NCBI GenBank assembly: GCA_964458615.1
Contig: CAYWJR010000001.1
Coordinates: 24,429-88,428 of the forward strand
Source of the DNA: an uncultured Alphaproteobacteria bacterium
Lineage (GTDB): Bacteria > Pseudomonadota > Alphaproteobacteria > SHNJ01
Reading direction: 5' to 3'
Length of the DNA: 64,000 nt
Shown: positions 10,425-64,000 of the stretch, piece after piece
Layout of the letters: the number at the start of each line of letters is the position of its first letter
Numbering within the stretch: position 1 is the first letter of the stretch
Notes under the pieces: model-generated
Told to the model about the DNA's origin: nothing
The model's input: the letters and a program-made list of their open reading frames with translations, nothing else
Databases searched by the model: none
Position numbers and translations under genes: made by a program

Positions 10425-10516
10425 TGGCGGATGGAGCGAGATTCGAACTCGCGAGGGACTTACGCCCCTGCCGGTTTTCAAGACCGGTGCTTTCAACCGC
10501 TCAGCCATCCATCCGC
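10425..10516 (-). tRNA. tRNA-Ser (anticodon TGA), class II tRNA with long variable arm, CCA encoded.
   Basis: Reverse complement reads GCGGATGGATGGCTGAGCGGTTGAAAGCACCGGTCTTGAAAACCGGCAGGGGCGTAAGTCCCTCGCGAGTTCGAATCTCGCTCCATCCGCCA. Acceptor stem pairs, anticodon loop CTTGAAA, T-loop GTTCGAATC. Confidence 0.85.
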
Positions 10517-32825: not shown

Positions 32826-33398
32826 TTAATCGGAAATGACTTGCGGCGCCGCTCTCATAACGACTTGAGGCGGAGGTGGCGGCGGCGGTGGTGGCGGTGG
32901 AGGCGGTGAAGCAACAGCTGTTGTCACTTTTACAGTATGCGTGACAGTTGCCGTTTGGCTTGGTGTCGATGGTGCTGGCGCCGAATAACTAGGCGTAGGC
33001 GACGGAATTACGGGAGTTACAGAAGATACCGTTGTCGTTGGCGCCGAATTACCAGTGGTAGGTCTTGTCGCAGTAACAACTGGCCTTACTGGCCGAACCA
33101 CGGCTGCGGATGCGCGTTGTAAATTGTTGTTATATGCATATGACGATTTCGATGGCGCGATCTTGCTAAAAGATATATTGCGCCCCTGCACTTCGGATAC
33201 TGCGCCCGATTGGTCGCCTGTGCTTGAATTCATTAATCGGCGCAACGGGTTTTGCGCAGCCTGATTGACGCCCGAATTCCGGTTATTGCGGTAATTTGTT
33301 GAATAATAATTTTGATCTTGCTGTGCATAGGCATCGGCGATTGGCGATAAAATCAATACCGCCATAATCAAAATTAGATGTCTCATAACCCTGTTCAT
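32826..33398 (-). CDS. Secreted low-complexity protein with a poly-proline (~P13) tract.
   Basis: Signal peptide MRHLILIMAVLILSPIADAYA. Asn/Ser/Thr/Pro-rich. C-terminal ...ASPPPPPPPPPPPPPQVVM encoded by a GGN/CCN simple repeat at about 32868..32906. Confidence 0.6.
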   Translation of the reverse strand: MNRVMRHLILIMAVLILSPIADAYAQQDQNYYSTNYRNNRNSGVNQAAQNPLRRLMNSSTGDQSGAVSEVQGRNISFSKIAPSKSSYAYNNNLQRASAAVVRPVRPVVTATRPTTGNSAPTTTVSSVTPVIPSPTPSYSAPAPSTPSQTATVTHTVKVTTAVASPPPPPPPPPPPPPQVVMRAAPQVISD

Positions 33399-36362: not shown

Positions 36363-38488
36363 GGCGTTTGAACTATTGTTCGTTCTTTGGGCATGTGGAT
36401 CGTAACCTTGGTTCCTTGATTCAGTCCGCTTTCCAAAATAATCGTGCCGCCGTGCATTTCCACCAGCGATTTGGTAATCGGCAACCCAAGCCCTGTTCCT
36501 TTGTATCTGCGGCTAATTTGGCTGTCGACTTGAATGAACGGCTCCATGGCGCGCGCAATGCTGTCGGGTTCCATGCCCACGCCATGATCCTGTATCGAAA
36601 CCGAAATCCCCATATCTTCGCGCAGCCAAAATTTAATTTCTATGCTGCCGCCGTCGCTGCTGAATTTTACCGCATTCGATACCAAATTGGTGAATATTTG
36701 CGTCATCGCGCGTTCATCCGCGTTCAATTTCGGCAAATTCTGCGGCATATCGATAAACAACTGAATGCCCGCGTTTTGCATTTCAATTTCAACGAAACTT
36801 TGTACCCGCGCCAATATATCGCTTAGAACCAATGGCGTGCTATTCAAATCCAGCTTGCCTTCTTCCATTTTGGACAGATCCAGAATGTCTTTGATCAAAT
36901 TCAACAAATGCTGACCGCTTTTGAAAATATGTTCCGAATATTCGACATATTTCGCATTGCCCAATGCGCCTAAAATTTGCGTTTGCATCGCTTCGGAAAA
37001 ACCCATAATGGCGTTTAACGGCGTGCGCAATTCATGGCTTACATTGGCCAGAAACCGGGATTTCGTCTTACTGGCCATCAACGCCGCATCTTTGGCCGTA
37101 CGCATTTCCTTGACCGCCTTTTCCCGTTTTTGGGTTTCGGAATTGAATTTATCAAGGATCATATTGTATTGCATGGCGATCGTGCCCGCCTCTGTTTCCT
37201 GCTCGACATCGACAGGGCGAGTAAAATCGCCCTCTTGGCGTTGGCGTTCCATTTCCTGCAATAATTTAAACAACGACGTATTCGCGCCATGTTCCGCCAC
37301 GTTTAATCCGATGCGTTCGGATTCGGGGTCGACGCGCAGCGCGAAAAACCGGTCGATTACCGCCAAACAAATGAATCCGACGGTGAAAGAATATGCACCG
37401 ATACTGACGATACCCAAAAATTGTACGCCCAATTGTTCCATGCGGGTAAGGCCGGAATCGAATGCCGTTGTCGGCGCGAATAACGCAACCGCCAACGTAC
37501 CCCAAATCCCCGCGAATAAATGCGCGGGAACGGCATTGATAACATCGTCGATTTGCAATTTTAACAATAATTCGCAGCCCGCATAACACACCATCGCGCC
37601 GATCATGCCGATAATGATCGCTGCATATGGCGTAATAACATGCGCGCATGCCGATATACTAACCAATCCAGCGACAACGCAACTGATCGATCGGATGACG
37701 TTTGGCCGGCCTTTAAAATGCCAAGATAACGCCAATGCGGTCAAACCGCCAATCGCGCCGCCCAATGCCGTATTCAAAATAACCAATGGCACATCGCCGG
37801 TGAATTGGGGCAACGACCCGCCGGTAAATCCGAACCAGCCCACCCACAACAACATCAATCCCAATGTCGCTTTGGGTAAATCGCTGCCTTCGATTTCGGT
37901 GCCTTGCGGGCCGAACCGGCCGATGCGCGGCCCGATAATAATCAATGCCGCCAGCGCCATCCAGCCGCCGACCGAGTGAACCACGGTCGATCCCGCGAAA
38001 TCGATGAATCCCAAACTGACCAGCCAGCCGGAACTGGTATCCGGAATCGACCCCCCCCACGCCCAATGGCCGGCGACGGGATAAATCAATCCTGATAAGA
38101 TGCAGGAACAAAACACATAACCGGTAAAACGGATCCGTTCGGCCACAGCGCCCGAAACGATGGTGGTGGCAATGGCGCAAAACGCCATCTGGAAAAGAAA
38201 GAAAGAATACAGCCACGAAGATGCGGTATCGCCGAATACAAAATAACTTCCGCCTATTATGCCGTTTTGGCTGGCGCCAAACATAATGCCAAACCCAAAC
38301 AGCCAGAATAACAAAGACGCGATACAAAAATCGACGACGTTCTTACCGGCGACATGGATGCTGTTTTTCGCGCGCACCAATCCGCTTTCAAGGCAAGTAA
38401 AACCCGCCTGCATCATGATGACCAGAATGGCGCAGAAAACCAGCCAGAAAATATCGAAATATTCGGATAAACCTTCTACCAAAATCAA
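36359..38488 (-). CDS. Ammonium transporter (Amt) domain fused to a histidine kinase (Amt-HK sensor).
   Basis: N-terminal ~400 aa is a typical Amt/MEP channel (about 11 TM helices; ...DFAGSTVVHSVGGWMALAALIIIGPRIGRF...). This is followed by an H-box (LANVSHELRTPLNAIMGFSE) and an HATPase_c domain (GTGLGLPITKSLVEMHGG). No receiver domain. 4-nt convergent overlap with the hybrid kinase. Confidence 0.8.
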   Translation of the reverse strand: MILVEGLSEYFDIFWLVFCAILVIMMQAGFTCLESGLVRAKNSIHVAGKNVVDFCIASLLFWLFGFGIMFGASQNGIIGGSYFVFGDTASSWLYSFFLFQMAFCAIATTIVSGAVAERIRFTGYVFCSCILSGLIYPVAGHWAWGGSIPDTSSGWLVSLGFIDFAGSTVVHSVGGWMALAALIIIGPRIGRFGPQGTEIEGSDLPKATLGLMLLWVGWFGFTGGSLPQFTGDVPLVILNTALGGAIGGLTALALSWHFKGRPNVIRSISCVVAGLVSISACAHVITPYAAIIIGMIGAMVCYAGCELLLKLQIDDVINAVPAHLFAGIWGTLAVALFAPTTAFDSGLTRMEQLGVQFLGIVSIGAYSFTVGFICLAVIDRFFALRVDPESERIGLNVAEHGANTSLFKLLQEMERQRQEGDFTRPVDVEQETEAGTIAMQYNMILDKFNSETQKREKAVKEMRTAKDAALMASKTKSRFLANVSHELRTPLNAIMGFSEAMQTQILGALGNAKYVEYSEHIFKSGQHLLNLIKDILDLSKMEEGKLDLNSTPLVLSDILARVQSFVEIEMQNAGIQLFIDMPQNLPKLNADERAMTQIFTNLVSNAVKFSSDGGSIEIKFWLREDMGISVSIQDHGVGMEPDSIARAMEPFIQVDSQISRRYKGTGLGLPITKSLVEMHGGTIILESGLNQGTKVTIHMPKERTIVQTP

Positions 38489-47769: not shown

Positions 47770-48582
47770 TTATCCGAATAACCGAACGCGATCATGCGGG
47801 TTATCGGATCTTCCGGCAATTGGCTGTCTTGTTTGAAACATTGCCAAACAATCCCATTTTGCGTAATCGGCGTCTATTGGCGCGCTCAAGACATCGTGGA
47901 TCTTAATGATGTCTTGCAACGATTCGAACGCCGCATAACACAATGCCTTTATTCCCGCTGGCGCGATTGTATTTTCAACCTGCCAAATCGATTTTAATTC
48001 GCCGGATCTTTTATTCAAACTGACCGAATCCAAAGCAGGCGGGCGGTATTCCGTGATTGGGTCCAGTATTTTCCAGCTATCGGCGTAATCACCCGCCCTG
48101 CCAGTCATGCAATGACGATACAAATCCGCCTGAATCTGCTTTATTGATGCAATTCTTTGCCCTGCCAAATCGAATGTATCTATCCATTTCGGTACAACCG
48201 CATCGACCAATTCAGAATCTTTGGCCGAGGTTTTGGACAAAGTATTATCATGATCCGACAGATATTCCGCCCCAACCATGACATAACGCACGGCGCGATT
48301 CATAAAATTGATCATTTCCGGCGAATATGCCGCGCCGGTTTGCGTATGGCGTTGCCGCAGATGCAAAATAGTTGCGGCGCAAGCGGAAATCAATTGACCA
48401 TGTTCGTAGTCATGCAAGGCCGACGATTCAAAATCAGTAATTAAATTTTCAAGATTCGCGAAAATAATCGGCGGAACATCATTTTTAGAAAACAATTGGG
48501 CATAAGCCAATTGAAATGAAAATCCCAAATTGTTGTACGCTTGGTCGATTGTTTCAGATGGTGTGCGCGCCCGCCCGGTCAT
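47770..48582 (-). CDS. Hypothetical protein (270 aa).
   Basis: ORF; second gene of a two-gene minus-strand unit. No family recognised. Confidence 0.5.
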   Translation of the reverse strand: MTGRARTPSETIDQAYNNLGFSFQLAYAQLFSKNDVPPIIFANLENLITDFESSALHDYEHGQLISACAATILHLRQRHTQTGAAYSPEMINFMNRAVRYVMVGAEYLSDHDNTLSKTSAKDSELVDAVVPKWIDTFDLAGQRIASIKQIQADLYRHCMTGRAGDYADSWKILDPITEYRPPALDSVSLNKRSGELKSIWQVENTIAPAGIKALCYAAFESLQDIIKIHDVLSAPIDADYAKWDCLAMFQTRQPIAGRSDNPHDRVRLFG

Positions 48583-48594
48583 CGGCCAAATCCT

Positions 48595-49368
48595 TTATGC
48601 GGCGCGGCGGCGCCATGATGGTTTGATTTCCAGCAATACAACAGGCGGCAATTGCAATTCAGCGCGCTGTAAATTTTTTGGCAACGGCGATGCAACCGAT
48701 TGTTCCATGCGCAATACCGCTCCCGCCGCCTCGGTGACATAATAAGCCACCAAACGAAACGGTTCCGCCGCCGCGTTTTCAATTGGAAAAATATTTTTTG
48801 CCGATTGCATCAATTCAACAAAATCATTGTTCTTGGCCGCGTCCGACAATGTCACAGATCCCATATACCGCATATGTTCAACAGTTTGAAATTCCGCGTC
48901 ATTCAATCGCGCCACAATCGATGTGCCGACGCCGTTGGCCGCCTTTAATGCCAAATCCAGACGGAAAAACGTACCGCGTTGCGGCCAGTCGGGCAAGGAT
49001 TCGGAAATTTGTTTCATCGCGCGGTCGATTTTCAATTGATGTTTGGTCGGCATATGTCCGTTTTGACTGGCGCGTTCGGCAATCGATTCCACCATGGCAT
49101 AGGCCGCATCCATCAAAACCAAGGATCGAAAACTGACTGGTTTGGCATTGCGGCGGCGCGCCAAAATAAATTCCGAACACGCCTGCGCCAGATTACCCAT
49201 GGATGCCGCCGAAAATTGATCCGGGAATTCTTCGGCGCGTTGCGTAATATCGCGTATGGTCTTTAAATGACGGCTTGCGGGCGGGCTAAAACTGCCTGGA
49301 TTGGTTTTTCCTGCCTGTTCGGTTAAAAACATCAATGCGTTTTCAAATATTTCCATCTTGCCCCTCAA
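48595..49368 (-). CDS. Hypothetical protein (257 aa).
   Basis: ORF; first gene of a two-gene minus-strand unit, 12-nt gap to the next gene. No family recognised. Confidence 0.5.
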   Translation of the reverse strand: MRGKMEIFENALMFLTEQAGKTNPGSFSPPASRHLKTIRDITQRAEEFPDQFSAASMGNLAQACSEFILARRRNAKPVSFRSLVLMDAAYAMVESIAERASQNGHMPTKHQLKIDRAMKQISESLPDWPQRGTFFRLDLALKAANGVGTSIVARLNDAEFQTVEHMRYMGSVTLSDAAKNNDFVELMQSAKNIFPIENAAAEPFRLVAYYVTEAAGAVLRMEQSVASPLPKNLQRAELQLPPVVLLEIKPSWRRRAA

Positions 49369-49495
49369 ATATCGGATCCATTATGGATAAATTTTTACTA
49401 AAATCAAGCTTTTTCAAAAGCAATAAAATTTCAATTAACGCTGAATAATCAATAAATTAGCTGATTATATTGACAAATTACTTTATTGAATTAGG

Positions 49496-50149
49496 GTGCG
49501 TAAAATCAGAAAACAGAGGGATTCATACATGTTTGAACCAAATACAAAATTTGAATTGGCCACATATAACACAGTAAAAAATGAATGGGAGAAAATGCCA
49601 CCCGAGGTCAATGGCGGCAAAATTGAATTTTCAGATCCCATAGAGGCAACAAGCGCATTAACCAATCATTACACTAGTTGCGATCGGACATTTCAATTAA
49701 TCGACCCGGTTTTATTTCTTCCAAAAAACGAAACGGAAACTCCATTAAACGGTGCTATGACATTATTAATCTGCGCGCCAGGCGGGGAAAAGCGCCCGAT
49801 ATCGGAACAAGAATACAATGCACTACATGCTCTAACATTAACCTATGAATTTGCAATCGCAACCCCAAACGGCAATTTGGTGCCTTGCAATGAATTGGCA
49901 ACAGACAATCATGATCCAAGCCCCTTAAGCGCATCGGCAATGTCAACGATACTGCAACAACCACTGGGGCGGTCATGGATACCGGAACATCCTCCGCGTC
50001 AATTAGCCAATACATCAACAGCAACCAGATTTCATGGTGTATCAGCGATGCCAATGACGATTTTGGTAAATCAACCCGGCAAAAAAACTGCCCCGATCTC
50101 GCCTGATCAATTGGCGGCGTTACGGGCATTGTGCCGCGCTAGCGCCTAA
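49496..50149 (+). CDS. Hypothetical protein (217 aa) with an internal sequence repeat.
   Basis: Divergent from the two-gene unit across a 127-bp AT-rich spacer. Internal repeat: GGEKRPISEQEYNALHALTLTY versus PGKKTAPISPDQLAALRALCRA. Confidence 0.5.
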   Translation: MRKIRKQRDSYMFEPNTKFELATYNTVKNEWEKMPPEVNGGKIEFSDPIEATSALTNHYTSCDRTFQLIDPVLFLPKNETETPLNGAMTLLICAPGGEKRPISEQEYNALHALTLTYEFAIATPNGNLVPCNELATDNHDPSPLSASAMSTILQQPLGRSWIPEHPPRQLANTSTATRFHGVSAMPMTILVNQPGKKTAPISPDQLAALRALCRASA

Positions 50150-54007: not shown

Positions 54008-56113
54008 ATGCTGTCTAAAAAATCGCCATTGCAGCCCATTTTCGCGCCGATTTCCTCGATCAAGGGAATCGGGCCGCGTTATGCCGCACTGTTGGCCAAT
54101 TTAACCGGCCCGCTGATTAGGGATTTATTATGGCACCTGCCCGCAGGCATTATCGACCGCCGCAATCAGCCCAAAATAGCAGAACTTAGTAAATTTCACG
54201 GCCAAACGGTAACGTTGGATGTGCTTGTGGTCAAACACATCAAATCCGGCCGGCGCGGATTGCCGTTCAAGGTGACGGTTCAAGACGCAACCGGAACGAT
54301 GGACATCGTATTTTTCAAAGGCAAAGAGCAATTTTGGCAAAAATCCCTGCCAATCGCGACCCAAAAAATCATCAGCGGCAAGGTCGAATTTTTTAAAAAC
54401 ACCGCGCAAATGGTTCACCCCGATTACATCGGCAACCCGCAAGATGTAAATGCCATTCGCGGGATAGAGGCTGTGTACCCGCTGACCTATGGCGTTACCA
54501 ATAAATTTTTGCGCAAAATGACCGCCATCGCGCTTGGCGTTGTATCGAAAATGCAACCCTGGCCTGATTGGATAGACGCGAATTTGTGTAAAACCCGCAA
54601 TTGGCCGGATTGGGGGGACGCCATGATCGCGGTTCACAATCCCACACAAGAATCCGATTTTTCACCCGCCCAACCGGCGCGGCAACGATTGGCGTATGAC
54701 GAAATATTATCACATCAATTGGCATTAACGTTGGTGCGTAATATTCAGCGCGCAAAACGCACCAATCGCAATATCAAACCGGATTTCACCCTGCGCCGCA
54801 AATTGCTGGATGCATTGCCATTCCAACTAACCGATGCGCAGTTGCAAACATTGGATGAAATCGACGCCGACATGCAATCCAATCAACCGATGTTGCGGTT
54901 ATTACAAGGCGATGTCGGCAGCGGTAAAACCATTGTCGCCATGCTTGCAATGATAAATGCCATCGAATCCGGCGGCCAGGCCGCGATTATGGCGCCAACC
55001 GAAATACTGGCGCGGCAGCACGAACACACAATCCGGCCATTGGCCGAAAAAATCGGCTTGAAAACCGTCACATTGACCGGCCGGGACAAAGGAAAATCCC
55101 GCGCGGAATTGATCCGTCAAATCAAAGACGGCGAAGCCCAAATCGTAATCGGCACGCACGCAATATTAGAAGACAATATCGAATTCCGCCGCCTAGGTTG
55201 CGTTGTTATCGACGAACAACACCGTTTTGGCGTCGAACAACGCCTTGGGTTAATGCACAAAGGCGAAATGGTCGATACATTGGTGATGACCGCAACCCCT
55301 ATTCCACGCAGTCTTTTTCTGGCGCTTTATGGCGATTTGGACACGTCCCGCATTACGCAAAAACCGCCCGGACGGAAACCGATCGATACCCGCACAATCG
55401 CAACCGACCGCATCGACGAAGTGATTGACGGGCTTGCCCGCGCAGTTGCCGAAGGGCGGCAAATTTATTGGGTTTGTCCATTGGTTGCGGAATCCGAAAT
55501 ACTGGATTTAGCCGCAGCCGAAGAACGATACGAAAAATTGAAAAAAATATTCGGGGCAAAAACAGGAATTGTGCATGGCAAAATGAAGGCTGCGGACAAA
55601 GACCGCGTCATGCAATCATTCGCCAAGGATGAAATAAAGATACTGGTATCCACCACAGTCATCGAAGTCGGCGTGAATGTGCCCAACGCCAGCATTATGG
55701 TCATCGACCACGCCGAAAGGTTTGGATTGTCGCAATTGCACCAATTGCGCGGGCGCGTCGGGCGGGGTGAAAAGCAATCCACGTGCCTGTTGTTGTTTTC
55801 AGCCAATTTATCGCAAACCGCCAAATCGCGGTTGGCGATCATGCGGGAAACCGAAGATGGATTCCGTATCGCCGAAGAAGATTTGAAATTGCGCGGCGCC
55901 GGTGAAATTTTAGGCACACGCCAAAGCGGATTGCCCGATTTTAAATTGGCCAATTTTTTCGCGCACCAGGATTTATTTAAAATCGCCCAGGCCGATGTAA
56001 AATTGATTTTGGAAAAAGACCCGCATTTAATGAATTCGCGCGGCCAGTCGTTGCGGATATTGCTGGAATTGTTCAGCCGAGATCAAGCAATTGAATATTT
56101 AGGCAGCGGTTGA
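54008..56113 (+). CDS. recG: ATP-dependent DNA helicase RecG.
   Basis: Wedge domain. Helicase motifs (GDVGSGKTIVA, DEQHRFGV, TATPIPRS) and TRG motif. Confidence 0.95.
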   Translation: MLSKKSPLQPIFAPISSIKGIGPRYAALLANLTGPLIRDLLWHLPAGIIDRRNQPKIAELSKFHGQTVTLDVLVVKHIKSGRRGLPFKVTVQDATGTMDIVFFKGKEQFWQKSLPIATQKIISGKVEFFKNTAQMVHPDYIGNPQDVNAIRGIEAVYPLTYGVTNKFLRKMTAIALGVVSKMQPWPDWIDANLCKTRNWPDWGDAMIAVHNPTQESDFSPAQPARQRLAYDEILSHQLALTLVRNIQRAKRTNRNIKPDFTLRRKLLDALPFQLTDAQLQTLDEIDADMQSNQPMLRLLQGDVGSGKTIVAMLAMINAIESGGQAAIMAPTEILARQHEHTIRPLAEKIGLKTVTLTGRDKGKSRAELIRQIKDGEAQIVIGTHAILEDNIEFRRLGCVVIDEQHRFGVEQRLGLMHKGEMVDTLVMTATPIPRSLFLALYGDLDTSRITQKPPGRKPIDTRTIATDRIDEVIDGLARAVAEGRQIYWVCPLVAESEILDLAAAEERYEKLKKIFGAKTGIVHGKMKAADKDRVMQSFAKDEIKILVSTTVIEVGVNVPNASIMVIDHAERFGLSQLHQLRGRVGRGEKQSTCLLLFSANLSQTAKSRLAIMRETEDGFRIAEEDLKLRGAGEILGTRQSGLPDFKLANFFAHQDLFKIAQADVKLILEKDPHLMNSRGQSLRILLELFSRDQAIEYLGSG

Positions 56114-56740
56114 TTGCGTGTTGTTGCTGATAAGGCCGCTGGACAAAATCAATTTCCACGCGTCTTCGACCGGTAAATCGACATATCTTACATCCGAAGA
56201 CGGGTAATACATCAACAATCCCGCCGTGGGCACGGGCGATAAGGGAACTAAAACCGCCACCATGTCTTTGCCCAAAGATTTTTCAATCGATTTATGAGGG
56301 GTTTCAGATACAAACCCGATAACCCAACTGGTTTTATGCGGATAAGGCACCATCACAACCTGACGGAACGCCTGGGTTTTTTCGCCGAACAGCATTTTCG
56401 CGGTCTGTTTGATTGGCGTATATAATCCGCGAATAATCGGCATCCGGCCCAATATCGCATCGCCAAGCCCAACGAAAAATTGCCCCAAATAATTGGCCGT
56501 AATCGCGCCCAACAAGGTTAACATAACCAATAAAAAAATCAAACCGAATCCGGGGAAATCGGTCGGCAATATCGGGATCAACGGCGCGACTTGTTCATCC
56601 GCGTACCGAATAACCGACCAGGCGATATAAATCGTAACGCCAATCGGCGCCGCCACCAAAACGCCCGCGAAAAAGTAATTCCGCAATTTGCGCCCGGCGC
56701 GGTCCAGCAATCCAATATTCTGCTGTTTATTGTCTGTCAT
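56099..56740 (-). CDS. DUF502-family membrane protein.
   Basis: 213 aa. N-terminal RKLRNYFFAGVLVAAPIGVTIYIAWSV signature and a second TM helix. 15-nt convergent overlap with recG. Confidence 0.65.
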   Translation of the reverse strand: MTDNKQQNIGLLDRAGRKLRNYFFAGVLVAAPIGVTIYIAWSVIRYADEQVAPLIPILPTDFPGFGLIFLLVMLTLLGAITANYLGQFFVGLGDAILGRMPIIRGLYTPIKQTAKMLFGEKTQAFRQVVMVPYPHKTSWVIGFVSETPHKSIEKSLGKDMVAVLVPLSPVPTAGLLMYYPSSDVRYVDLPVEDAWKLILSSGLISNNTQSTAA

Positions 56741-56747
56741 AAATTAT

Positions 56748-58094
56748 TTACCGTTCCGTCAGGGCATTATGTTTTGCTTTGAAAAACGGTTTCAACAAAT
56801 AATCCAAAACCGTTTTCGATCCCGTCAACACGTCCACCTGGGCGGTCATGCCGGGAATAATAGGCAGGCTTTTGGTGTTGCCCTTGAACGTGTTGCCATA
56901 GGTACGCAATTTTACCAGATAAAAACTTTCCCCGCGTTCGTCGACGATAGTATCGGGGGAAATATGTTCTACTTTTGCTTTTAAACCGCCATAAATCGAA
57001 AAATCATAAGCGGTAATTTTCACCATGGCTTCTTGATCCGGGCGGATAAAGGCGATGTCGGATGGGCGGATTTTCGCCTCGACCAGCAAATTATCTTCGA
57101 TCGGAACGACCTCGACCAAATCTTCGCCGGGCTTTATGACGCCGCCGACGGTGTTAATTTTGATTTGTTTAACGGTTCCTTTTAATGGGGAACGCACTTC
57201 GGTTCTGGCCACCCGGTCGCGCGATGCCGTTATGCTTTGGGTCAATGCGTTTAACTCGCCGCGCTTTTGATTCAATTCATTCGATACTTCGGAACGGAAA
57301 GTTTGTTTTTTATCCTCTACCCTTTGGCGCGCTTCTTCCATCGCAACGCGGGCGCGCGGTTGCGCTGCCTTGGCCTGGTTCATGCGCGATTCCAATTCGG
57401 TAATTTCGCGTTCGATGCTTAGCAGTTCCATACGCGATGTAACGCCTTGTTGCACGCCCTTGCTGGCGATTTCTTTTTGTTGATACGCAACATCCAGGGA
57501 TTTTTTGGTGCTCTCGGCGCTGGTGTATAATTCGGACAATTCCTGTTGTTTCTGTGAAACCTGCGATTGGAAAATATCCAACTGGCCGCGCAATTGCGAT
57601 TGGCGCGATTGGTAAAGCGCCATTTCGCTTTTTACCGCATCGGATGCTTCGTCAATAACTTCTTTTGGGAATGCCAATGGCTTGCCTTCGTATTCCGCGT
57701 TCAGGCGCGATATAGTCGCAATCAACGACAAATATTTGCTGCGCGCCGTTTTATAATCCGCCTGCGCATAGGTATTGTCGATGATCAGCATCACTTCGTC
57801 TTTTTCGACCATCTGGCCTTCGCGAACCAGGATTTTGTTGATAATGCCGCCCTCCAGGTTCGATACGACCTGAATATGGCTCGAGGTGATGATTTTCCCC
57901 TGCCCGCGCGTTACTTCGTCGACGCTGGCAAAAGCAGCCCACAGCAAGAACACCACAAAGAATAAACTGATACACAAAAGCAATATATGCGAAGCCATGC
58001 GCGCGCCGCGATGCGATGCCGCGAATCTCTCCGGCATAAAATCGGTTTCTTCTTCGTGCACCCGCAAATATTCTTTGGCAATTTCTTTTAACAT
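56748..58094 (-). CDS. hlyD: Type I secretion system membrane fusion protein (HlyD family).
   Basis: N-terminal TM anchor, long coiled-coil, lipoyl-like and beta-barrel regions typical of HlyD. Immediately downstream of the ABC exporter. Confidence 0.85.
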   Translation of the reverse strand: MLKEIAKEYLRVHEEETDFMPERFAASHRGARMASHILLLCISLFFVVFLLWAAFASVDEVTRGQGKIITSSHIQVVSNLEGGIINKILVREGQMVEKDEVMLIIDNTYAQADYKTARSKYLSLIATISRLNAEYEGKPLAFPKEVIDEASDAVKSEMALYQSRQSQLRGQLDIFQSQVSQKQQELSELYTSAESTKKSLDVAYQQKEIASKGVQQGVTSRMELLSIEREITELESRMNQAKAAQPRARVAMEEARQRVEDKKQTFRSEVSNELNQKRGELNALTQSITASRDRVARTEVRSPLKGTVKQIKINTVGGVIKPGEDLVEVVPIEDNLLVEAKIRPSDIAFIRPDQEAMVKITAYDFSIYGGLKAKVEHISPDTIVDERGESFYLVKLRTYGNTFKGNTKSLPIIPGMTAQVDVLTGSKTVLDYLLKPFFKAKHNALTER

Positions 58095-58116
58095 TCTATT
58101 CCTCGGTTTCCGACCG

Positions 58117-60339
58117 TTAGGTGGACTTTACTTCGCCGTCTTTAAGGGAATTCAAAACTTGGTCGCGCGGCCCGTCGGCAACGACCTTGCCATCGCTCAT
58201 CACAATCAACCGATCGACAATCGATAACATCGATGCGCGGTGTGTGACCACAATGACTGTTTTATCTTTCATAACCTGCGCCAAACGCGCCTTGAAACGA
58301 TTTTCCGAACCGGGATCCATGGAACTGGTCGGTTCATCCAAAACCAAAATCGGCGGATCCAGCAACAAAGAACGCGCCAAGGCAATCGATTGGCGTTGAC
58401 CACCCGAAAGCCCTTCACCGCGCTCGCCGATATTCAAATCATAACCCAACGGATGATGGCGCAGGAAATCGGTAACACCGGCCATTGTTCCCGCGGTCAA
58501 TAACGCGCGGTCATCGGCGCCCGTTCGGCCCATGATGATATTTTCCTTTACCGTGCCGTAAAATAAAAATACGTCCTGCGGGCAAATGCCGATATTACGC
58601 CGTAAATCCGCCGGATCGATTTGGCGAACATCGGTGCCGTCGATCGTTACAGAACCTTCTTGGGGTTCGTACAAAGCCATCATCAATTTTTCAAGCGTGG
58701 TTTTACCCGATCCAATCGGCCCGATAATGCCGACTTTTTCACCCGGTTCGATCCGGAAATTGCATTGGTTCAGCGCCTTTGTCCGTTGGCCTGGATACGC
58801 AAACGTGACGTTACGGAATTCGATTTGGCCGCGCAAATGCGGACGGCTTAGGAATGCTTTGCCAGCCGGGCGTTCGACCGGCAATTGCATAAATTCATCC
58901 AATGTTTCAAGCGCCGATTCGCTTTGGTGAAAACGGGTCAATAATCCGGCGATTTGCCCCAAAGGCGCAGTTGCGCGCCCCGCCAAAATAACCGCCGCGA
59001 TCAGGGCGCCGGTTGTAATCGACCCAGCCGCAACCAAATATGCGCCGACAATAACGATCATGACCGTTACCATGTAGTTGGCAAACACGGTGAAATTCAA
59101 AACCGCCGAAGACAGGCTGTGCGCATGCATGGCGGATTTGGATGTTTTACCGACGAAACTTTCCCATAAACGCTGCATATATCCTTCGGCACCCATCTTT
59201 TTAATCGTTTCAAGGCCGGTAATGGATTCCACAAGCAACGCGCTTTTTTGCGACGATTCACGGAAAGTTTCTTTGACGATGCGATTCAGTGGACGTTGCA
59301 TGTAAAACGCGACGCCCATAATGATCGGAATGGCGATCAACGGAACCAATGCCAGCCATCCGCCGATTAATGCGATTACCAAAATATACAAAAACAAAAA
59401 TGGCAAATCGACCAATGTGACCAATGTGGCCGAAGTATAAAATTCCCGCAAATGTTCGAATTCGCGCAAATGCCCGGCCAATGCGCCGGCCGATGGCGGG
59501 CGCGATTCCATTTTCATGCCCAGCAATTGTTCGAACAGTTTACTGGAAATCAATGTGTCCGCACCGCGTCCGGTTAAATCCAAAAAATATGCGCGCAGCG
59601 ATCGGATAATAAAATCGAAAACAAATACGATCATCACGCCAACCGCCAAAACCCACAACGTTTCCATGGCATTGTTGGGGATAACGCGGTCATACACGTT
59701 CATCGTGAATAATGGTGCCGCCAGCGCGAATAAATTGATCATCAATGCCGCAAAGGCGACTTCGACATACATGCTTTTGAAACGGCGCAAGGTGCCCCAG
59801 AACCAGCCCGCTTTTTCCGGTTCTTCCAAACCTTGTGCGCGCGGGTCGTAACGGAATTCGGGTTTGGCAAAAATGGCGTATCCTGTGAACGAAGATTCCA
59901 AATCGCGCATGGCGATTTGCTGAACCCCGCCGGTTTCAGGCAAAATAATTTCCGCCTTATCGCCGATAACGCCAACATAAACGCATGAACGGCGATCTTT
60001 TAACAACAATATGCACGGCAGCAACATCGGATTAATATCCGGCAAATTGCGCACCATCAGCCGCGCGGAAATACCTGCGCGTTGTGCCGAACGGATAAAC
60101 AACGCGGGCGACATGCCCATTTCCGAAATCGGCAATCCGGCCGCCAACGCCTCGCGCGATTGCGGGCGATCCAGCAATTTACAAATAATATGCAGACAAT
60201 TTAGCAGAACGTCTTCGGCATTGCTGACCGACGGGGTAACGCGCCAAACTTGGCGCGCCGAATCGCCGCTGTCTTTGGATTGATCGGACGGCTGGTTGCC
60301 GGAAAAAGATGGGTCTTTATTTGAATCGCCAGATTGCAC
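58117..60339 (-). CDS. hlyB: Type I secretion system permease/ATPase (HlyB family) with N-terminal C39-like domain.
   Basis: C39-like domain (CLHIICKLLDRP...). Six TM helices. ABC module with Walker A GPIGSGKTT, signature LSGGQRQ, Walker B ILVLDEPTS. Confidence 0.9.
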   Translation of the reverse strand: MQSGDSNKDPSFSGNQPSDQSKDSGDSARQVWRVTPSVSNAEDVLLNCLHIICKLLDRPQSREALAAGLPISEMGMSPALFIRSAQRAGISARLMVRNLPDINPMLLPCILLLKDRRSCVYVGVIGDKAEIILPETGGVQQIAMRDLESSFTGYAIFAKPEFRYDPRAQGLEEPEKAGWFWGTLRRFKSMYVEVAFAALMINLFALAAPLFTMNVYDRVIPNNAMETLWVLAVGVMIVFVFDFIIRSLRAYFLDLTGRGADTLISSKLFEQLLGMKMESRPPSAGALAGHLREFEHLREFYTSATLVTLVDLPFLFLYILVIALIGGWLALVPLIAIPIIMGVAFYMQRPLNRIVKETFRESSQKSALLVESITGLETIKKMGAEGYMQRLWESFVGKTSKSAMHAHSLSSAVLNFTVFANYMVTVMIVIVGAYLVAAGSITTGALIAAVILAGRATAPLGQIAGLLTRFHQSESALETLDEFMQLPVERPAGKAFLSRPHLRGQIEFRNVTFAYPGQRTKALNQCNFRIEPGEKVGIIGPIGSGKTTLEKLMMALYEPQEGSVTIDGTDVRQIDPADLRRNIGICPQDVFLFYGTVKENIIMGRTGADDRALLTAGTMAGVTDFLRHHPLGYDLNIGERGEGLSGGQRQSIALARSLLLDPPILVLDEPTSSMDPGSENRFKARLAQVMKDKTVIVVTHRASMLSIVDRLIVMSDGKVVADGPRDQVLNSLKDGEVKST

Positions 60340-60446
60340 GTAATTCTCCCTATCCTATTGAATATAGAGAAAACACCCCAAATTGGTAAGAAGGAAGTAG
60401 CAATTGGGTGCAATAGCCAAAATATAGTTTCCTAATTGCTACTGAA

Positions 60447-60480
60447 CAATACAAAGAAAGAGCACCGCTTTCGCGGTGCT
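60447..60480 (-). terminator. Intrinsic terminator downstream of the RTX gene.
   Basis: Hairpin agcaccgc-tttc-gcggtgct, followed on the minus strand by CTTTCTTTGTATTG. Confidence 0.45.
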
Positions 60481-60508
60481 GAGGTAGGTTCGGTAGAGAA
60501 AACTTGGA

Positions 60509-63421
60509 TTACGCAATCACAACATCGTTCATGGTTACGCCGCCGCCCGCAAAGGTGACGTTGTTCAATTGCGCCATATTGACGAAATTCGATCCGTTTG
60601 CCAAACCGTCAATATCGACTTGCATCATGGTAAATCCGCCGCCATCCACAAAACGGACGAAATCCGACAATGGGGTGGTTCCGGAAACATAACCGCTTAA
60701 TACATCTTCCAATCGAATCGTATCCGATCCGGTTTGGAAATCTTGAATGACTTCGGATGCCGAACCTTCGCTGACATCGCGATAAACAAAAGCATCCGCG
60801 CCCGCGCCGCCGACCAAATGATCGTTGCCGGCGCCGCCGTAAATGACATCATTGCCGTTTTCGCCGTACAATCTGTCGTTGCCACTGCCACCGTCAAGAT
60901 TGTCGTTGCCGTCACGCGAGTAAATGACATCGTCTCCGGCGCCACCTAAAATCGTATCGTTGCCTGCGTTGGTGAAAACATAATCGTTGCCATTGCCAGC
61001 ATCGACATCGACGTCGACATTGTATGAAAAACGGCTGCTCAACAAATGCAACACGTCATTGCCGTCGCCAAGATCGAAATGTTCGACGTCTTTGATCAAC
61101 TGTGTATCCAAAATTGACGCATCGATTTGCGGTGTTTCGATACCTGCGATAATAGATACCGCCCGGCCATCAATGATAAACACATCCGCACCGGCGGTTC
61201 CAAGAACCGAATCGTAACCGTCGCCGCCATCGTAAACGTCTTGATATATAATCTTTCCTTGGATAGGCGCGTTGTGCCCATACGAATTTAAAACGTTGCC
61301 AACGGTCGCAGCAGGCGACAACCATGTGCCGTCGCCTTGATCGTTAAAGAACATATCGTTGCCAGCGCCGCCGCGGATAACATCAATACCCAAGCCACCG
61401 GTTAAAATGTCATGGCCATCGCCACCATCGATTAAATCGTTGCCAGTGCCGCCATAAACCAAATCGTCGCCCGCGCCCGAAGAAATAACGTCGCGTCCCG
61501 CGCCGCCATCTATCGAATCATGGCCGTCTTGTGTCCAAATCACGTCGTTGCCGTTGCCCGCATCGACAATAACGTCGTCGAACGAAACCGTCGCACTGCG
61601 CATGTCTAAAATATCGTTGCCATCGCCCAGAACAAATTCTTCGATGCCAAGCAATCTGGATTCACCAGGAACCGGAGATGGATTGACGTTATCATCCGCC
61701 AAAATCCAATCATTGCCGGATGTCGCGGTCAAAGTATCGAAACCGTTGCCGCCCAAATAAATGTCATGCGACATATTCATGGTGGTGTTCACCATGCTGC
61801 GCACGGCATATGCGTCCAACGATGCGATATTTTCAATCGCAGTCGGCAACAACCATGTGCCCGGAGGCGTGATCGAACCCGAATTGGTCCAAACCGCATC
61901 GACACTGTAACGCAACGTATCGTTGCCGTCGCCGCCGAACAATAAATCCACGCCGGTGCCGCCATCCAAAATATCGTTGCCCGCGCCGCCATTGATAATG
62001 TCGTCGCCTGCATTGCCGTTCAATACATCGTCGCCGTCTTCGGCATCGTCGCCGATAATATCGTCGCCGTCGCCGCCGTTAATCACATCATTGCCGGCAT
62101 CGCCGAATAAATAATCGTCGCCGGAATCGCCATCGATATTGTCGTTGCCCAGGCCGCCTTCGATTAAATCGCTGCCTGCGCCGCCGGAAATATTATCGTT
62201 GCCATCGTTACCGGCAATATCGTCGTCGCCGTCGTCGCCGAACAACATATCGTCGCCAGCGCCGCCGAATACAACGTCGTTACCCGAACCGCCACGAATG
62301 GTATCGTTACCATCATTGCCTTCGATGTAATCGTTGCCATCGTCACCGTTAATGGTGTCGTTACCGGCATCGCCGTATAAATTGTCATCGTCCGCGCCGC
62401 CGGAAATATTGTCGTTGCCGTCGCCGCCGGAAATTGTATCCATGCCGCCGTTGCCGGACAATTGATCGTTGCCAGCATCGCCGTCGATTAAATCGTTCAA
62501 GCTGCCGCCAACGACCGTGTCATTGCCAGCGCCTGCGTGGAATGTGAATGTTGGATCAAAACCCGCAGCAGTAGCGGCGGCCAAACTGTCGGCCAAAATT
62601 ACCACGTCATCGCCGTTCAATGCGTCATATTGAGTACCAGCCAAATAAGTACCGGCCACAACGTTATTGAAATTCACCGTGTCGTTTTGCTCCGTAAACA
62701 AGCCGTTTGGTGGCGGCGGCGGAGGTGGCGGCGGAGGTGGCGGCGGCGGAGGTGGCGGCGGTGGCGGCGGCGGAGGTGGTGGTGGCGGTGGCGGAGGTGG
62801 TGGTGGCGGCGGTGGCGGTGGTGGTGGTGCCACATCTCCGGCTTGAGCTACAACCAAAACCGAACGCTCCAATCTGTCGCCTGCTCCCGCAGATCCCAAA
62901 CCGTCGTCTTGTGCCAATCCAATCGCACGAACGCCTGGCAATGTGCCAGCATCTTCAAAACGCGAAAAAGCCGAACCGCTATTTGCTTCGGATCCGCCTT
63001 CTGCTGTTTGGATTAAACCGATTCTGTTCAATAATGCTTCTAAATCTGGGCCGGATATATCGCCGTTATCGGCCAATTTCAAATGCGGAGGATTCGATTC
63101 TTTCGATGTCTTAAAGAAATCGACCAAAACCGTTTCTTTGCCGCTTGCGTCTTTGATGATTAAATTTTGTCCATCAACCGTCATTTTGGAATCCGACAAG
63201 TTGATCTTGCTTAGATCGATATTTTTGTTGGTGTTGGTATCGATTAAGGTTTTTTCAGGAATAGCGGCCAGTTTAGGCGATACTTTTTGTGCGGTATCGA
63301 CAACTTTTTTCGCTTGTTTGTGAGAGGCATCGACAGATTTGTCGGCGACAACTTTGGCTTTTGCAGTGGATTTAACCGCTGATTTTTTGATGCCGGTGTC
63401 GCATTTTGGATCTACAGCCAT
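60509..63421 (-). CDS. Large RTX-type calcium-binding repeat protein (T1SS substrate), 970 aa, with a ~40-residue homopolymeric proline tract.
   Basis: Dozens of GGxGxDxUx nonapeptide repeats (e.g. GGAGNDILDGGTGVDLLFGGDGNDTL) arranged in two duplicated modules. Lys-rich N-terminal region. Pro tract encoded at 62707..62826. C-terminus ...GGGVTMNDVVIA fits an uncleaved T1SS signal. Lies between tolC and hlyB. Confidence 0.85.
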   Translation of the reverse strand: MAVDPKCDTGIKKSAVKSTAKAKVVADKSVDASHKQAKKVVDTAQKVSPKLAAIPEKTLIDTNTNKNIDLSKINLSDSKMTVDGQNLIIKDASGKETVLVDFFKTSKESNPPHLKLADNGDISGPDLEALLNRIGLIQTAEGGSEANSGSAFSRFEDAGTLPGVRAIGLAQDDGLGSAGAGDRLERSVLVVAQAGDVAPPPPPPPPPPPPPPPPPPPPPPPPPPPPPPPPPPPPPPPPNGLFTEQNDTVNFNNVVAGTYLAGTQYDALNGDDVVILADSLAAATAAGFDPTFTFHAGAGNDTVVGGSLNDLIDGDAGNDQLSGNGGMDTISGGDGNDNISGGADDDNLYGDAGNDTINGDDGNDYIEGNDGNDTIRGGSGNDVVFGGAGDDMLFGDDGDDDIAGNDGNDNISGGAGSDLIEGGLGNDNIDGDSGDDYLFGDAGNDVINGGDGDDIIGDDAEDGDDVLNGNAGDDIINGGAGNDILDGGTGVDLLFGGDGNDTLRYSVDAVWTNSGSITPPGTWLLPTAIENIASLDAYAVRSMVNTTMNMSHDIYLGGNGFDTLTATSGNDWILADDNVNPSPVPGESRLLGIEEFVLGDGNDILDMRSATVSFDDVIVDAGNGNDVIWTQDGHDSIDGGAGRDVISSGAGDDLVYGGTGNDLIDGGDGHDILTGGLGIDVIRGGAGNDMFFNDQGDGTWLSPAATVGNVLNSYGHNAPIQGKIIYQDVYDGGDGYDSVLGTAGADVFIIDGRAVSIIAGIETPQIDASILDTQLIKDVEHFDLGDGNDVLHLLSSRFSYNVDVDVDAGNGNDYVFTNAGNDTILGGAGDDVIYSRDGNDNLDGGSGNDRLYGENGNDVIYGGAGNDHLVGGAGADAFVYRDVSEGSASEVIQDFQTGSDTIRLEDVLSGYVSGTTPLSDFVRFVDGGGFTMMQVDIDGLANGSNFVNMAQLNNVTFAGGGVTMNDVVIA
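62707..62826. repeat. 120-bp GGN/CCN trinucleotide simple-sequence repeat encoding the poly-Pro tract.
   Basis: 40 consecutive NGG triplets on the plus strand (ggtggcggcggcggaggt...). The antisense frames give spurious Arg/Trp-rich and Ala/Val-rich ORFs (62537..63016, 62707..63114). Confidence 0.9.
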
Positions 63422-63545
63422 ATTCTACCTCTACCTAGTTCGAACAATTATTAACTTTTTATTTGCATTTATTAATGCTTGTTTAATGATCGTAACTTAA
63501 AAAGAGACGATTTGCAACAAGAAAATTTGTAATTTGTTAATAACT

Positions 63546-63592
63546 AAGGGCTCTTATCTTGAATGATAAGAGCCCTTTAACTAATTGTTTTT
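63546..63592. terminator. Perfect 13-bp inverted repeat hairpin (bidirectional terminator) between tolC and the RTX gene.
   Basis: AAGGGCTCTTATC-ttgaat-GATAAGAGCCCTT, followed by taactaattgttttt. Confidence 0.5.
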
Positions 63593-63602
63593 AATAGTAT
63601 TT

Positions 63603-64000
63603 TTAGTAAGAAGCGACTTTTTGAATCTCTGGAACTTTAACCCCAAGATTGCTGTTCAAAACGCCCATAACCGACATTAACCGGTAAGCGCCGAACAAAG
63701 CCGTATATTCCGCAGTGACCAAATCGCTGCGAGCCAAGAACAATTCGTTTTCCGAATCCAACAAATCCAGCAAGCTGCGTTGACCCAATTCGAATTGTTT
63801 CAGGTACGCATCGCGAACGCGTTCGTTCGCCCCGGTAACGTTACGCAAAGTAACAACCCGTTCCCGCGCCGACGCCATAGCGTTCCAGGCAAAACGGGCT
63901 TGTTCCGATTGAATTCTTTCAACGCGCGATACGACATCGCGGGCGCGCGAACGGCGCAACAATGCGCTTTCTTTGCGCGCATCGTCGGATCCGCCCTTGA
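63603..64000 (-). CDS. tolC: TolC-family outer membrane efflux protein. Only the C-terminal part is in the window; the gene continues past the right edge.
   Basis: C-terminal TolC helices (YLKQFELGQRSLLDLLDSENELFLARSDLVTAEY). The reading frame stays open to the window edge (…KGGSDDARKESALLRRSR…). The 'M' in the track ORF is an internal TTG. Confidence 0.75.
   Translation of the reverse strand, partial: KGGSDDARKESALLRRSRARDVVSRVERIQSEQARFAWNAMASARERVVTLRNVTGANERVRDAYLKQFELGQRSLLDLLDSENELFLARSDLVTAEYTALFGAYRLMSVMGVLNSNLGVKVPEIQKVASY

Follow-up and report, generated by a model that had tools for sequence, protein, structure and literature searches.

A 64,000-nt stretch of contig CAYWJR010000001.1 from an uncultured Alphaproteobacteria bacterium (hereafter referred to as the window; all positions given are window coordinates) was analyzed with respect to a type I secretion system (T1SS) locus encoding an RTX substrate, an ABC transporter, an HlyD-type adaptor and, in part, a TolC-family channel. 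The locus is best interpreted as a chromosomally fixed, vertically inherited T1SS of the Lap/Lss subclass that represents a variant of the two-step systems for tethered adhesins, a reading to which a probability of roughly 0.58 was assigned. Membership in the Lap subclass is proposed because of four independent features, namely the class of the ABC transporter, the class of the C-terminal secretion signal, the N-terminal architecture of the substrate including a motif homologous in position to a known cleavage site, and an adjacent LapG-family gene in relatives. The locus consists of the following genes:

63603..64000, minus strand: 3' end of the gene for a TolC-family outer-membrane channel (last ~131 codons; the remainder lies beyond the window)
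60509..63421, minus strand: RTX substrate gene (970 aa; single intact open reading frame, ORF)
58117..60339, minus strand: T1SS ABC permease/ATPase of the LssB/LapB class (740 aa; ABC_membrane and ABC_tran, weak Peptidase_C39)
56748..58094, minus strand: HlyD/LapC-type periplasmic adaptor (448 aa; TIGR01843)
56099..56740, minus strand: DUF502 membrane-protein gene (PF04367, E 9.6e-30)

All five genes share one strand and are transcribed in the order tolC (3' end), RTX gene, ABC gene, hlyD and DUF502 gene, with the right edge of the window (position 64000) falling inside tolC. A preliminary description of this DNA, made from the sequence alone, had recognized a type I secretion locus at this site, and this was confirmed, as the ABC protein, the HlyD adaptor and the RTX substrate all pass family models. 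Likewise, the RTX gene proved to be undisrupted, representing one uninterrupted ORF, and the neighboring genes DUF502, recG, sdhE and mfd were found as stated. The designation as a complete four-gene locus had to be restricted, since the window stops within tolC and leaves only its C-terminal ~131 codons (63603..64000).

Regarding the export machinery, the ABC protein passes the LssB model TIGR03375 (959 bits; cut-off 693.1), whereas it fails the HlyB model TIGR01846 (453.5 bits; cut-off 725.55), and the label hlyB used previously was abandoned for this gene. LssB/LapB-like ABC transporters represent the subclass exporting retention-module adhesins (10.1101/198937). The adaptor matches TIGR01843 (type_I_hlyD) with 399.5 bits (cut-off 208.65). 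As judged from these family models, the system is of the Lap/Lss type and not of the HlyB type. In agreement with the preliminary description, the exporter carries an N-terminal C39-like domain (aa ~40-163, window 59851..60222; PF03412, E 1.1e-6), whose best match among solved structures is 3B79 (E 4.6e-14). This domain is non-catalytic because alignment to ComA reveals Val at the position of the catalytic Cys and Cys at the position of the His, both catalytic residues thus being replaced. The 131-aa TolC fragment covers model positions 287-413 of 414 in TIGR01844 (E 2.7e-25; Pfam OEP, E 2.1e-10) and stays under the whole-protein cut-off of that model because the gene is cut by the window edge. 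The complete TolC proteins of the related loci L086 (451 aa) and L083 (446 aa) share 84% and 80% identity, respectively, with this fragment at their ends, and full-length tolC genes (446-451 aa) occupy the matching position in L083, L086 and L093.

The hemolysin system of E. coli (HlyA/HlyB/HlyD/TolC) resembles the window locus in being a three-component T1SS with a C39-like domain on the ABC protein, an RTX substrate secreted via a C-terminal signal, and a terminator separating the substrate gene from the ABC gene. Apart from the failed HlyB model, however, the window locus differs from it by the lack of an HlyC acyltransferase gene, by a substrate that has no pore-forming hydrophobic domain, by encoding TolC itself and by a substrate N-terminus of the putative retention type.

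Further evidence for the Lap subclass originates from the anatomy of the substrate. An AlphaFold2 (AF2) model covering residues 1-330 was combined with family models and alignments of homologues, and the following parts were distinguished:

aa 1-53, minus strand: disordered, Lys/Ala-rich segment (AF2)
aa 57-133, window 63023..63253, minus strand: beta-rich domain and helix, candidate periplasmic retention domain with protease-targeting helix (AF2)
aa 139-142, window 62996..63007, minus strand: TAEG motif (invariant; alignment column of TAAG/PAAG in distant homologues)
aa 143-198, window 62828..62995, minus strand: predicted disordered segment, candidate channel-threading segment (AF2)
aa 199-238, window 62708..62827, minus strand: run of 40 consecutive proline residues (mixed CCA/CCG/CCT codons)
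aa ~241-890, window 60752..62701, minus strand: RTX beta-roll blocks (conserved LFTxxNDTVxFN cap at the start; AF2 roll from ~248)
window 60512..60751, minus strand: C-terminal T1SS target domain of the VCA0849 (CraA) type (TIGR03661)

The RTX part comprises 13 stretches matching HemolysinCabind (E 1.6e-75) and 20 strict GGxGxD nonapeptides, and orthologues of the substrate range from 839 to 1288 aa, with both ends aligning well. At the C-terminus, TIGR03661 (T1SS_VCA0849) matches aa 891-962 with 34.7 bits (cut-off 17.6); the protein VCA0849, after which this family is named, is CraA, for which cleavage by LapG has been validated (PMC6890996). At the N-terminus, strands (aa 57-123) and a subsequent helix (aa 124-133) were modelled with predicted local distance difference test (pLDDT) values of about 80-85. 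Over aa 139-198, pLDDT is below 50, and disorder begins exactly at TAEG. For LapG substrates, an order of beta retention domain, targeting helix, cleavage site and conduit-spanning segment without secondary structure was described (PMC13090378), the canonical LapG motif being [T/A/P]AA[G/V] (10.1101/198937, PMC13090378). Moreover, a flexible segment of LapA was modelled through LapE/TolC (10.1101/198937), and the disordered segment aa 143-198 of the window substrate corresponds to it.

When the N-terminal module was used as query of an exhaustive HMMER search, 17 proteins were retrieved, among which full-length module homologues reached E-values of 5e-6 to 7e-4. In the alignment column occupied by TAEG, the homologues P0130, P0131 and P0139 feature (N/D)P..V(A/V)PAAG and P0133 features STAAG. 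The TAEG variant itself is shared by the window clade, P0124 and P0138 and is invariant in the six TAEG-type sequences, even though the module of the others is only 24-69% identical to that of the window. The only family-level signal obtained for the N-terminal domain, consistent with the proposed reading, concerns the T1SS-secreted biofilm adhesin BapA of Salmonella (PF22783, NF033677): Pfam BapA_N appeared sub-threshold in three orthologues (E 2e-4 to 0.03), and distant module homologues scored 25-31 bits against the BapA prefix-like model (cut-off 35). In contrast to BapA, the window substrate stays below all curated thresholds and has no Ig-like repeats. For P0130 and P0138, the contigs were of insufficient length to reveal neighboring LapG or LapD genes. 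A word-indexed search with the profile of the N-terminal module recovered P0123 alone, and fold searches with the N-terminal domain gave no informative match. Matches to designed "Pizza" repeat proteins in a PDB profile search with the module were judged spurious, and a profile of the post-linker cap, tried as a census of linkers, was discarded since only short fragments and generic RTX proteins were returned.

A candidate protease gene was found in related loci. In L083, L086 and L093, a Peptidase_C93 gene (230-242 aa) is located directly upstream of tolC. The encoded proteins match the Legionella LapG structure 4FGO (E 9.2e-18) and P. fluorescens LapG (4U65) as well as the LapG model NF045674 (E 1e-20 to 1e-24, 72-85 bits), possess a signal peptide (Tat-like in L083) and share an invariant triad composed of the GDCED Cys, the DHAV His and the ILDNN Asp. 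Since the closest relatives of the window, L086 and L093/L094, have the C93 gene at this place, it most likely follows just past position 64000 in the genome studied here as well.

For comparison, the Lap system of P. fluorescens (LapA, LapB/C/E, LapG and LapD) and its homologues V. cholerae FrhA/CraA, Bordetella BrtA, Desulfovibrio DvhA and Legionella RtxA/LssB were considered. The window locus shares with them an LssB/LapB-class ABC protein with a non-catalytic N-terminal domain, an HlyD adaptor, a dedicated TolC (represented here by its C-terminal part) and an RTX substrate whose C-terminal signal is of the VCA0849/CraA type; a beta domain, helix, short conserved motif and unstructured segment are predicted in equal order. 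A gene for a LapG-family periplasmic Cys protease is added by the loci of relatives. Taken together, the substrate looks like a small surface-tethered adhesin.

Several observations weigh against this interpretation and at the same time mark the differences from the Lap systems. The di-alanine of LapG sites is missing, TAEG placing Glu at P1', and the [T/A/P]AA[G/V] motif that defines LapA-like substrates (10.1101/198937) is absent, TAEG occupying the homologous column. Known LapGs do not cleave AA-to-RR mutants or the degenerate AAAIG motif of PA1874. With 970 aa, the substrate also falls short of the published search criterion of more than 1000 aa (10.1101/198937), even though RTX motifs themselves are present; its passenger is small and almost purely RTX, these being its only adhesion-type repeats, and Ig-like, von Willebrand factor type A (vWA) or lectin adhesion domains are absent. 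Where Lap substrates have poly-glycine linkers, a rod of polyproline or PPVVV is present. The C93 proteins of the relatives, with their 72-85 bits, remain far under the LapG equivalog cut-off of 320 (NF045674). Moreover, the protease gene is not contained in the window, whose end lies in tolC, and in the L081 lineage neither a protease gene nor tolC adjoins the substrate gene. No LapD gene was recognized near the locus: GG[DE]EF and DDFGTG-type (GGDEF/EAL) motifs were absent from the window and loci L081-L093 in a regular-expression search of six-frame translations spanning at most 20 kb per genome. Finally, Caulobacter HvyA, an alphaproteobacterial bacterial transglutaminase-like cysteine proteinase (BTLCP), acts on capsule and not on an adhesin (PMC4241560).

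These observations could also be accommodated by a classical one-step T1SS releasing the RTX protein completely, in the manner of S-layer, NodO, bacteriocin or toxin proteins. The N-terminal domain would then be a functional or binding domain and not a plug, and the C93 protease would act on an unrelated target, other roles of alphaproteobacterial BTLCPs being possible (PMC4241560). The missing di-alanine, the missing LapD, the size of 970 aa made up of nearly nothing else than RTX blocks and the N-terminal fold search without a clear match all fit such a system, as do the best NCBIfam matches, namely RTX proteins that are released and a protein with calcium-binding repeats, none of which comes close to its cut-off. 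Full release is nevertheless considered less likely: the ABC protein belongs to the LssB/LapB class and not to HlyB or PrtD, the C-terminal domain is of the CraA type, the N-terminal module is homologous to modules with TAAG or PAAG at the aligned site, the adjacency of C93 gene, tolC and substrate gene is kept in three lineages, and TAEG remains invariant in spite of the low identity of the module.

Under the preferred two-step reading, the ABC protein, the HlyD adaptor and the dedicated TolC would, as suggested by family membership, export the 970-aa RTX protein with its C-terminus first. The N-terminal beta domain would fold in the periplasm and serve as a plug, so that the RTX protein would probably not be released, and the disordered residues 143-198 would thread the TolC channel. 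The polyproline rod may lie in or extend this thread, or may hold the Ca2+-folded beta-roll off the outer membrane. Cleavage at or near TAEG by a periplasmic LapG-family cysteine protease would then free the RTX protein.

The tract of 40 proline residues (P40) is a striking part of the substrate. Like the putative retention-type N-terminus and the conserved promoter-like and 3'-UTR elements, it had escaped the preliminary description. In E. coli, 91% of polyproline motifs are PPP only, and bacteria rarely contain long runs of proline (PMC4218817). Translation of such a run would require elongation factor P (EF-P). The tract was modelled by AF2 as an extended rod (pLDDT 83-90). It is encoded by 17 CCA, 18 CCG and 5 CCT codons and no CCC, the longest run of C being 2; CCC accounts for 22% of the proline codons in 29 other genes, and its absence from the tract has a probability of P = 5.6e-5. 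Among orthologues, no part of the substrate varies more than the linker between module and LFTxxNDTVxFN cap:

L086/L087: P40, with synonymous codons differing from those of the window (L086 being the closest full-length orthologue)
L093 and L094: at least 30 proline residues if the contigs are joined (one contig end contributing 10, the other 20)
L083/L095: (PPVVV), about 9 units
P0138: PPV/PPI-rich
L081: no linker

The L093 contig (end at ~10624) and the L094 contig (start) belong to one metagenome assembly (JACCDG01...) and are both broken inside the polyproline tract, and the contigs of L088, L090 and L091 begin right past the linker.

The CCC-free pattern and the equal length in two lineages whose substrates are only 62% identical suggest that selection maintains a stable tract of constant length. 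A polyproline-II helix extends by ~3.1 Å per residue, and the TolC channel is roughly 14 nm long. By this measure, P40 is modelled as a rigid polyproline-II rod of ~12 nm, comparable to the length of the TolC channel. An extracellular stalk is favored over a channel-filling rod because the 56 disordered residues could already span the channel and L081 has no linker at all. Proline-rich rigid spacers are known from envelope proteins, such as the proline-rich region of TonB and the wall-spanning regions of Gram-positive surface proteins. The proposed polyproline-II rod would resemble these in serving as a spacer of constant length that crosses an envelope layer or rises above it. It differs from them in being a pure homopolymer of 40 proline residues that belongs to a T1SS substrate and separates a periplasmic-type plug from a beta-roll. 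Short-read assemblies break at the proline tract, so that gene callers and databases mostly hold truncated members of this family.

A further proline-rich protein is encoded at 32826..33398 (minus strand): this 190-aa, Pro/Thr/Ser-rich predicted secreted protein features an N-terminal signal peptide and a run of 13 proline residues near its C-terminus, and its codon usage is atypical (log-likelihood -1.30; GC content at third codon positions, GC3, 0.43).

As 40 successive proline residues are very unusual in bacteria (PMC4218817) and a weak compositional match to the actin-nucleating BimA was obtained, the tract might alternatively mimic eukaryotic ligands of profilin, EVH1, SH3 or WW domains, the substrate then serving a symbiont or pathogen as host-cell effector or adhesin. 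Such a role appears improbable. Orthologues possess (PPVVV)n or nothing at this site, so that no specific role as a polyproline ligand is conserved; the core metabolism encoded nearby is of a free-living type (pyruvate dehydrogenase, NtrY, Amt-kinase fusion), and the second envelope protein with 13 successive proline residues in the window points to a habit of building structural spacers.

The preliminary description had regarded the locus as accessory cargo inserted at a synteny breakpoint beside recG, and had proposed to compare synteny and composition. Both comparisons were carried out. In a RecG scan of GTDB species representatives (one genome per species), the nearest RecG sequences were 56% identical (Micavibrio sp. 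metagenome-assembled genome, Nisaea and others). Many of these distant Alphaproteobacteria retain mfd-sdhE-recG together with a convergent DUF502 gene, and among 28 such loci with RecG 45-56% identical, a T1SS adjoining recG-DUF502 was found in none. It is only in these very distant Alphaproteobacteria (RecG identity of 56% or less) that the T1SS is lacking at this site. Closer relatives are metagenomic and were reached via proteins 78-88% identical to the window ABC protein. In these, the order substrate-ABC-HlyD-DUF502-recG-sdhE-mfd occurs in identical placement in six lineages including the window (L081/82/97, L083/84/95, L087, L088/89, L094); in L090, T1SS and DUF502 gene are retained with serS next to them in place of recG. 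Identities to the window across the relatives amount to 78-88% for LssB, 72-83% for HlyD, 60-78% for RecG, 58-71% for Mfd and 38-62% for the RTX substrate; the exporter proteins (LssB, HlyD) are thus better conserved than RecG or Mfd. L086 and L093/L094 are closest to the window (LssB 86-87% identical). Only the upstream side of the locus is plastic, L081/L082 featuring a thioesterase gene and a gyrB-like gene where others have tolC.

Regarding composition, the three complete T1SS genes were compared with the core genes, i.e., the remainder of the window (mean ± standard deviation). GC content (0.487-0.520 vs. 0.488 ± 0.027), GC3 (0.54-0.57 vs. 0.531 ± 0.060) and synonymous-codon log-likelihood (-1.00 to -1.03 vs. 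-1.036 ± 0.090) do not depart from the core distribution. Near the locus, neither an integrase nor a tRNA nor flanking repeats were found, the sole tRNA in the window being located at 10428..10514.

A horizontally acquired, strain-variable island for host interaction at a recG breakpoint is the least probable of the explanations considered. It could account for the absence of a T1SS from all 28 distant loci, for the variable upstream boundary with tolC and C93 missing in L081/L082 and for the fast evolution of the substrate gene. It conflicts with the identical position of the locus in lineages whose RecG is only 60-78% identical to that of the window, with exporter genes that are better conserved than RecG or Mfd, with native GC, GC3 and codon usage and with the lack of mobility genes. 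Gene order is kept across six lineages, so that no breakpoint is apparent beside recG, and presence at the recG site is constant within the clade, which the preliminary description itself had named as the finding that would contradict its proposal. Because of the same position in six lineages and the superior conservation of the machinery relative to RecG and Mfd, the locus is regarded as core within the clade. On comparative grounds, it represents an old, clade-defining acquisition that is vertically inherited under strong purifying selection and not mobile cargo.

Signals for transcription and translation were screened in the spacers of the locus and compared among relatives:

63546..63577, minus strand: hairpin past the tolC stop codon (perfect 13-bp stem, 6-nt loop; no clean T-run in the window)
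63489..63517, minus strand: promoter-like TTGCAA-N17-TACGAT upstream of the substrate gene (hexamers and spacing conserved in 5 lineages)
63429..63435, minus strand: GGTAGAG at the ribosome-binding region of the substrate gene (invariant in 5 lineages)
60482..60500, minus strand: 19-nt element TTCTCTACCGAACCTACCT in the 3' untranslated region (UTR), between substrate stop codon and terminator
60461..60480, minus strand: intrinsic terminator past the substrate gene (8-bp G+C-rich stem, GAAA loop, T-tract)
60396..60443, no strand assigned: inverted repeat (13-nt arms, 92% complementary, 22-nt loop; 7 nt upstream of the -35-like hexamer of the ABC gene)
60361..60389, minus strand: promoter-like TTACCA-N17-TATATT upstream of the ABC gene (-10 box TATA[AT]T)

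The terminator previously noted past the RTX gene was corroborated by its 8-bp stem and T-tract and is conserved among relatives: when sequences were folded singly, a hairpin with T-run was present past the substrate gene in every lineage. One compensated C-G to U-A pair was observed in it, and the stem of L088 is wholly different; RNAalifold counted only this one compensated pair on a MAFFT alignment that misregisters the stems. Regarding the terminator claimed past tolC, the hairpin was retrieved as a perfect 13-bp stem, whereas a clean T-run is missing in the window; hairpins of differing sequence followed by a T-run occur in L086, L083 and L093, i.e., a hairpin is present in 4/4 lineages where the tolC-substrate spacer is visible. 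The inverted repeat in the RTX-ABC spacer exists as reported (60396..60443); it is specific for the window and not kept in relatives, and was rejected as a conserved regulatory element.

The promoter-like element of the substrate gene also occurs in L081, which has no tolC upstream. It agrees with 8/12 sigma-70 consensus positions and hence was not listed by the promoter scan; a sigma-28 reading was dismissed due to a poor -35 match on inspection by eye. Upstream of the ABC gene, the TATA[AT]T box is invariant in seven lineages, 20-27 nt before the start codon. An Rfam search of the intergenic spacers revealed no riboswitch, only sub-threshold noise. Conserved hairpins together with separate promoter-like elements before the substrate and ABC genes agree with the differential expression suggested earlier and make separate transcription units plausible. 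At least three units may exist, namely (protease-)tolC, substrate and ABC-adaptor(-DUF502), each with a conserved promoter-like element and/or terminator, a layout that would permit the production of far more substrate than machinery. In L081, the spacer between substrate and ABC genes (9700..9960) is ~200 nt longer and contains two strong GC-rich hairpins, GGATTCCGGCTTACGCCGGAATG and CATCCCGACGCAAGTCGGGATC, which look like inserted elements resembling repetitive extragenic palindromic (REP) sequences or miniature inverted-repeat transposable elements (MITE).

Concerning the DUF502 gene, hlyD starts 22 nt past the ABC gene, and the DUF502 gene starts 7 nt past hlyD and convergently overlaps recG with its 3' end. 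Across all relatives, 0-9 nt separate hlyD from the DUF502 gene, L090 with its non-adjacent recG being no exception, and the DUF502 gene is probably co-transcribed with the exporter genes. In distant Alphaproteobacteria, DUF502 resides beside recG without any T1SS; its product is probably not part of the secretion machine itself.

The window contains no second copy of the 3'-UTR element of the substrate gene, and each related locus has a single copy. Its core, TTCTCTACC, is invariant in six lineages, whereas the flanking last codons and the terminator stem vary. Moreover, the CTCTACC of the element is the exact reverse complement of GGTAGAG in the 5' UTR of the same gene. RNAduplex joined both heptamers in 4/4 lineages tested, the fractions of shuffled sequences reaching the observed energy being 0.000, 0.064, 0.076 and 0.43, and no covariation was seen between the element and the ribosome-binding heptamer. 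In the icaR mRNA of Staphylococcus aureus, an anti-Shine-Dalgarno (anti-SD) sequence in the 3' UTR pairs with the SD sequence in the 5' UTR. The substrate gene is similar in that a conserved 3'-UTR element complements its own ribosome-binding heptamer; unlike icaR, it offers complementarity and conservation only, without covariation. The element could participate in pairing between 5' and 3' UTR or act as the seed of a 3'-UTR-derived small RNA, and should be regarded as a lead only.

Combining these features, a more specific version of the two-step reading can be formulated, which comprises a LapD-independent variant with a protease shifted to cut between TA and EG, P40 as a ruler and an anti-SD element in the 3' UTR limiting translation of its own mRNA. 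The rod of exactly 40 residues would either span the TolC channel or determine how high the beta-roll stands over the outer membrane. This combination as a whole is speculative and must be considered unlikely.

Two further regions of the window deserve mention. At 36359..38488 (minus strand), a 709-aa fusion of an ammonium transporter (Amt) and a histidine kinase (HisKA and HATPase_c) is encoded, adjoining a PAS/hybrid histidine kinase gene with Hpt domain (33648..36362, plus strand) of low GC content (0.436). Between the pyruvate-dehydrogenase genes and mfd (47770..50149), three ORFs (270, 257 and 217 aa) without Pfam match are located, and relatives feature an ORF of 268-275 aa, likewise without Pfam match, in this position.

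As a T1SS, the locus is routine, and the idea of an accessory island should be dropped. If functional, the 3'-UTR element would represent a further case of bacterial cross-talk between 5' and 3' UTRs. The series of linkers among the orthologues (P40, P40, contig-broken, (PPVVV)n and none) constitutes a natural experiment on the segment connecting plug and surface and could be a source of rigid spacers with defined lengths when Lap-based surface display is to be engineered. Published screens for substrates of LapG, relying on the di-alanine, a size of more than 1000 aa and a nearby LapD, would miss this RTX family. Tethered T1SS proteins in Alphaproteobacteria may thus be smaller and more common than the published criteria imply.

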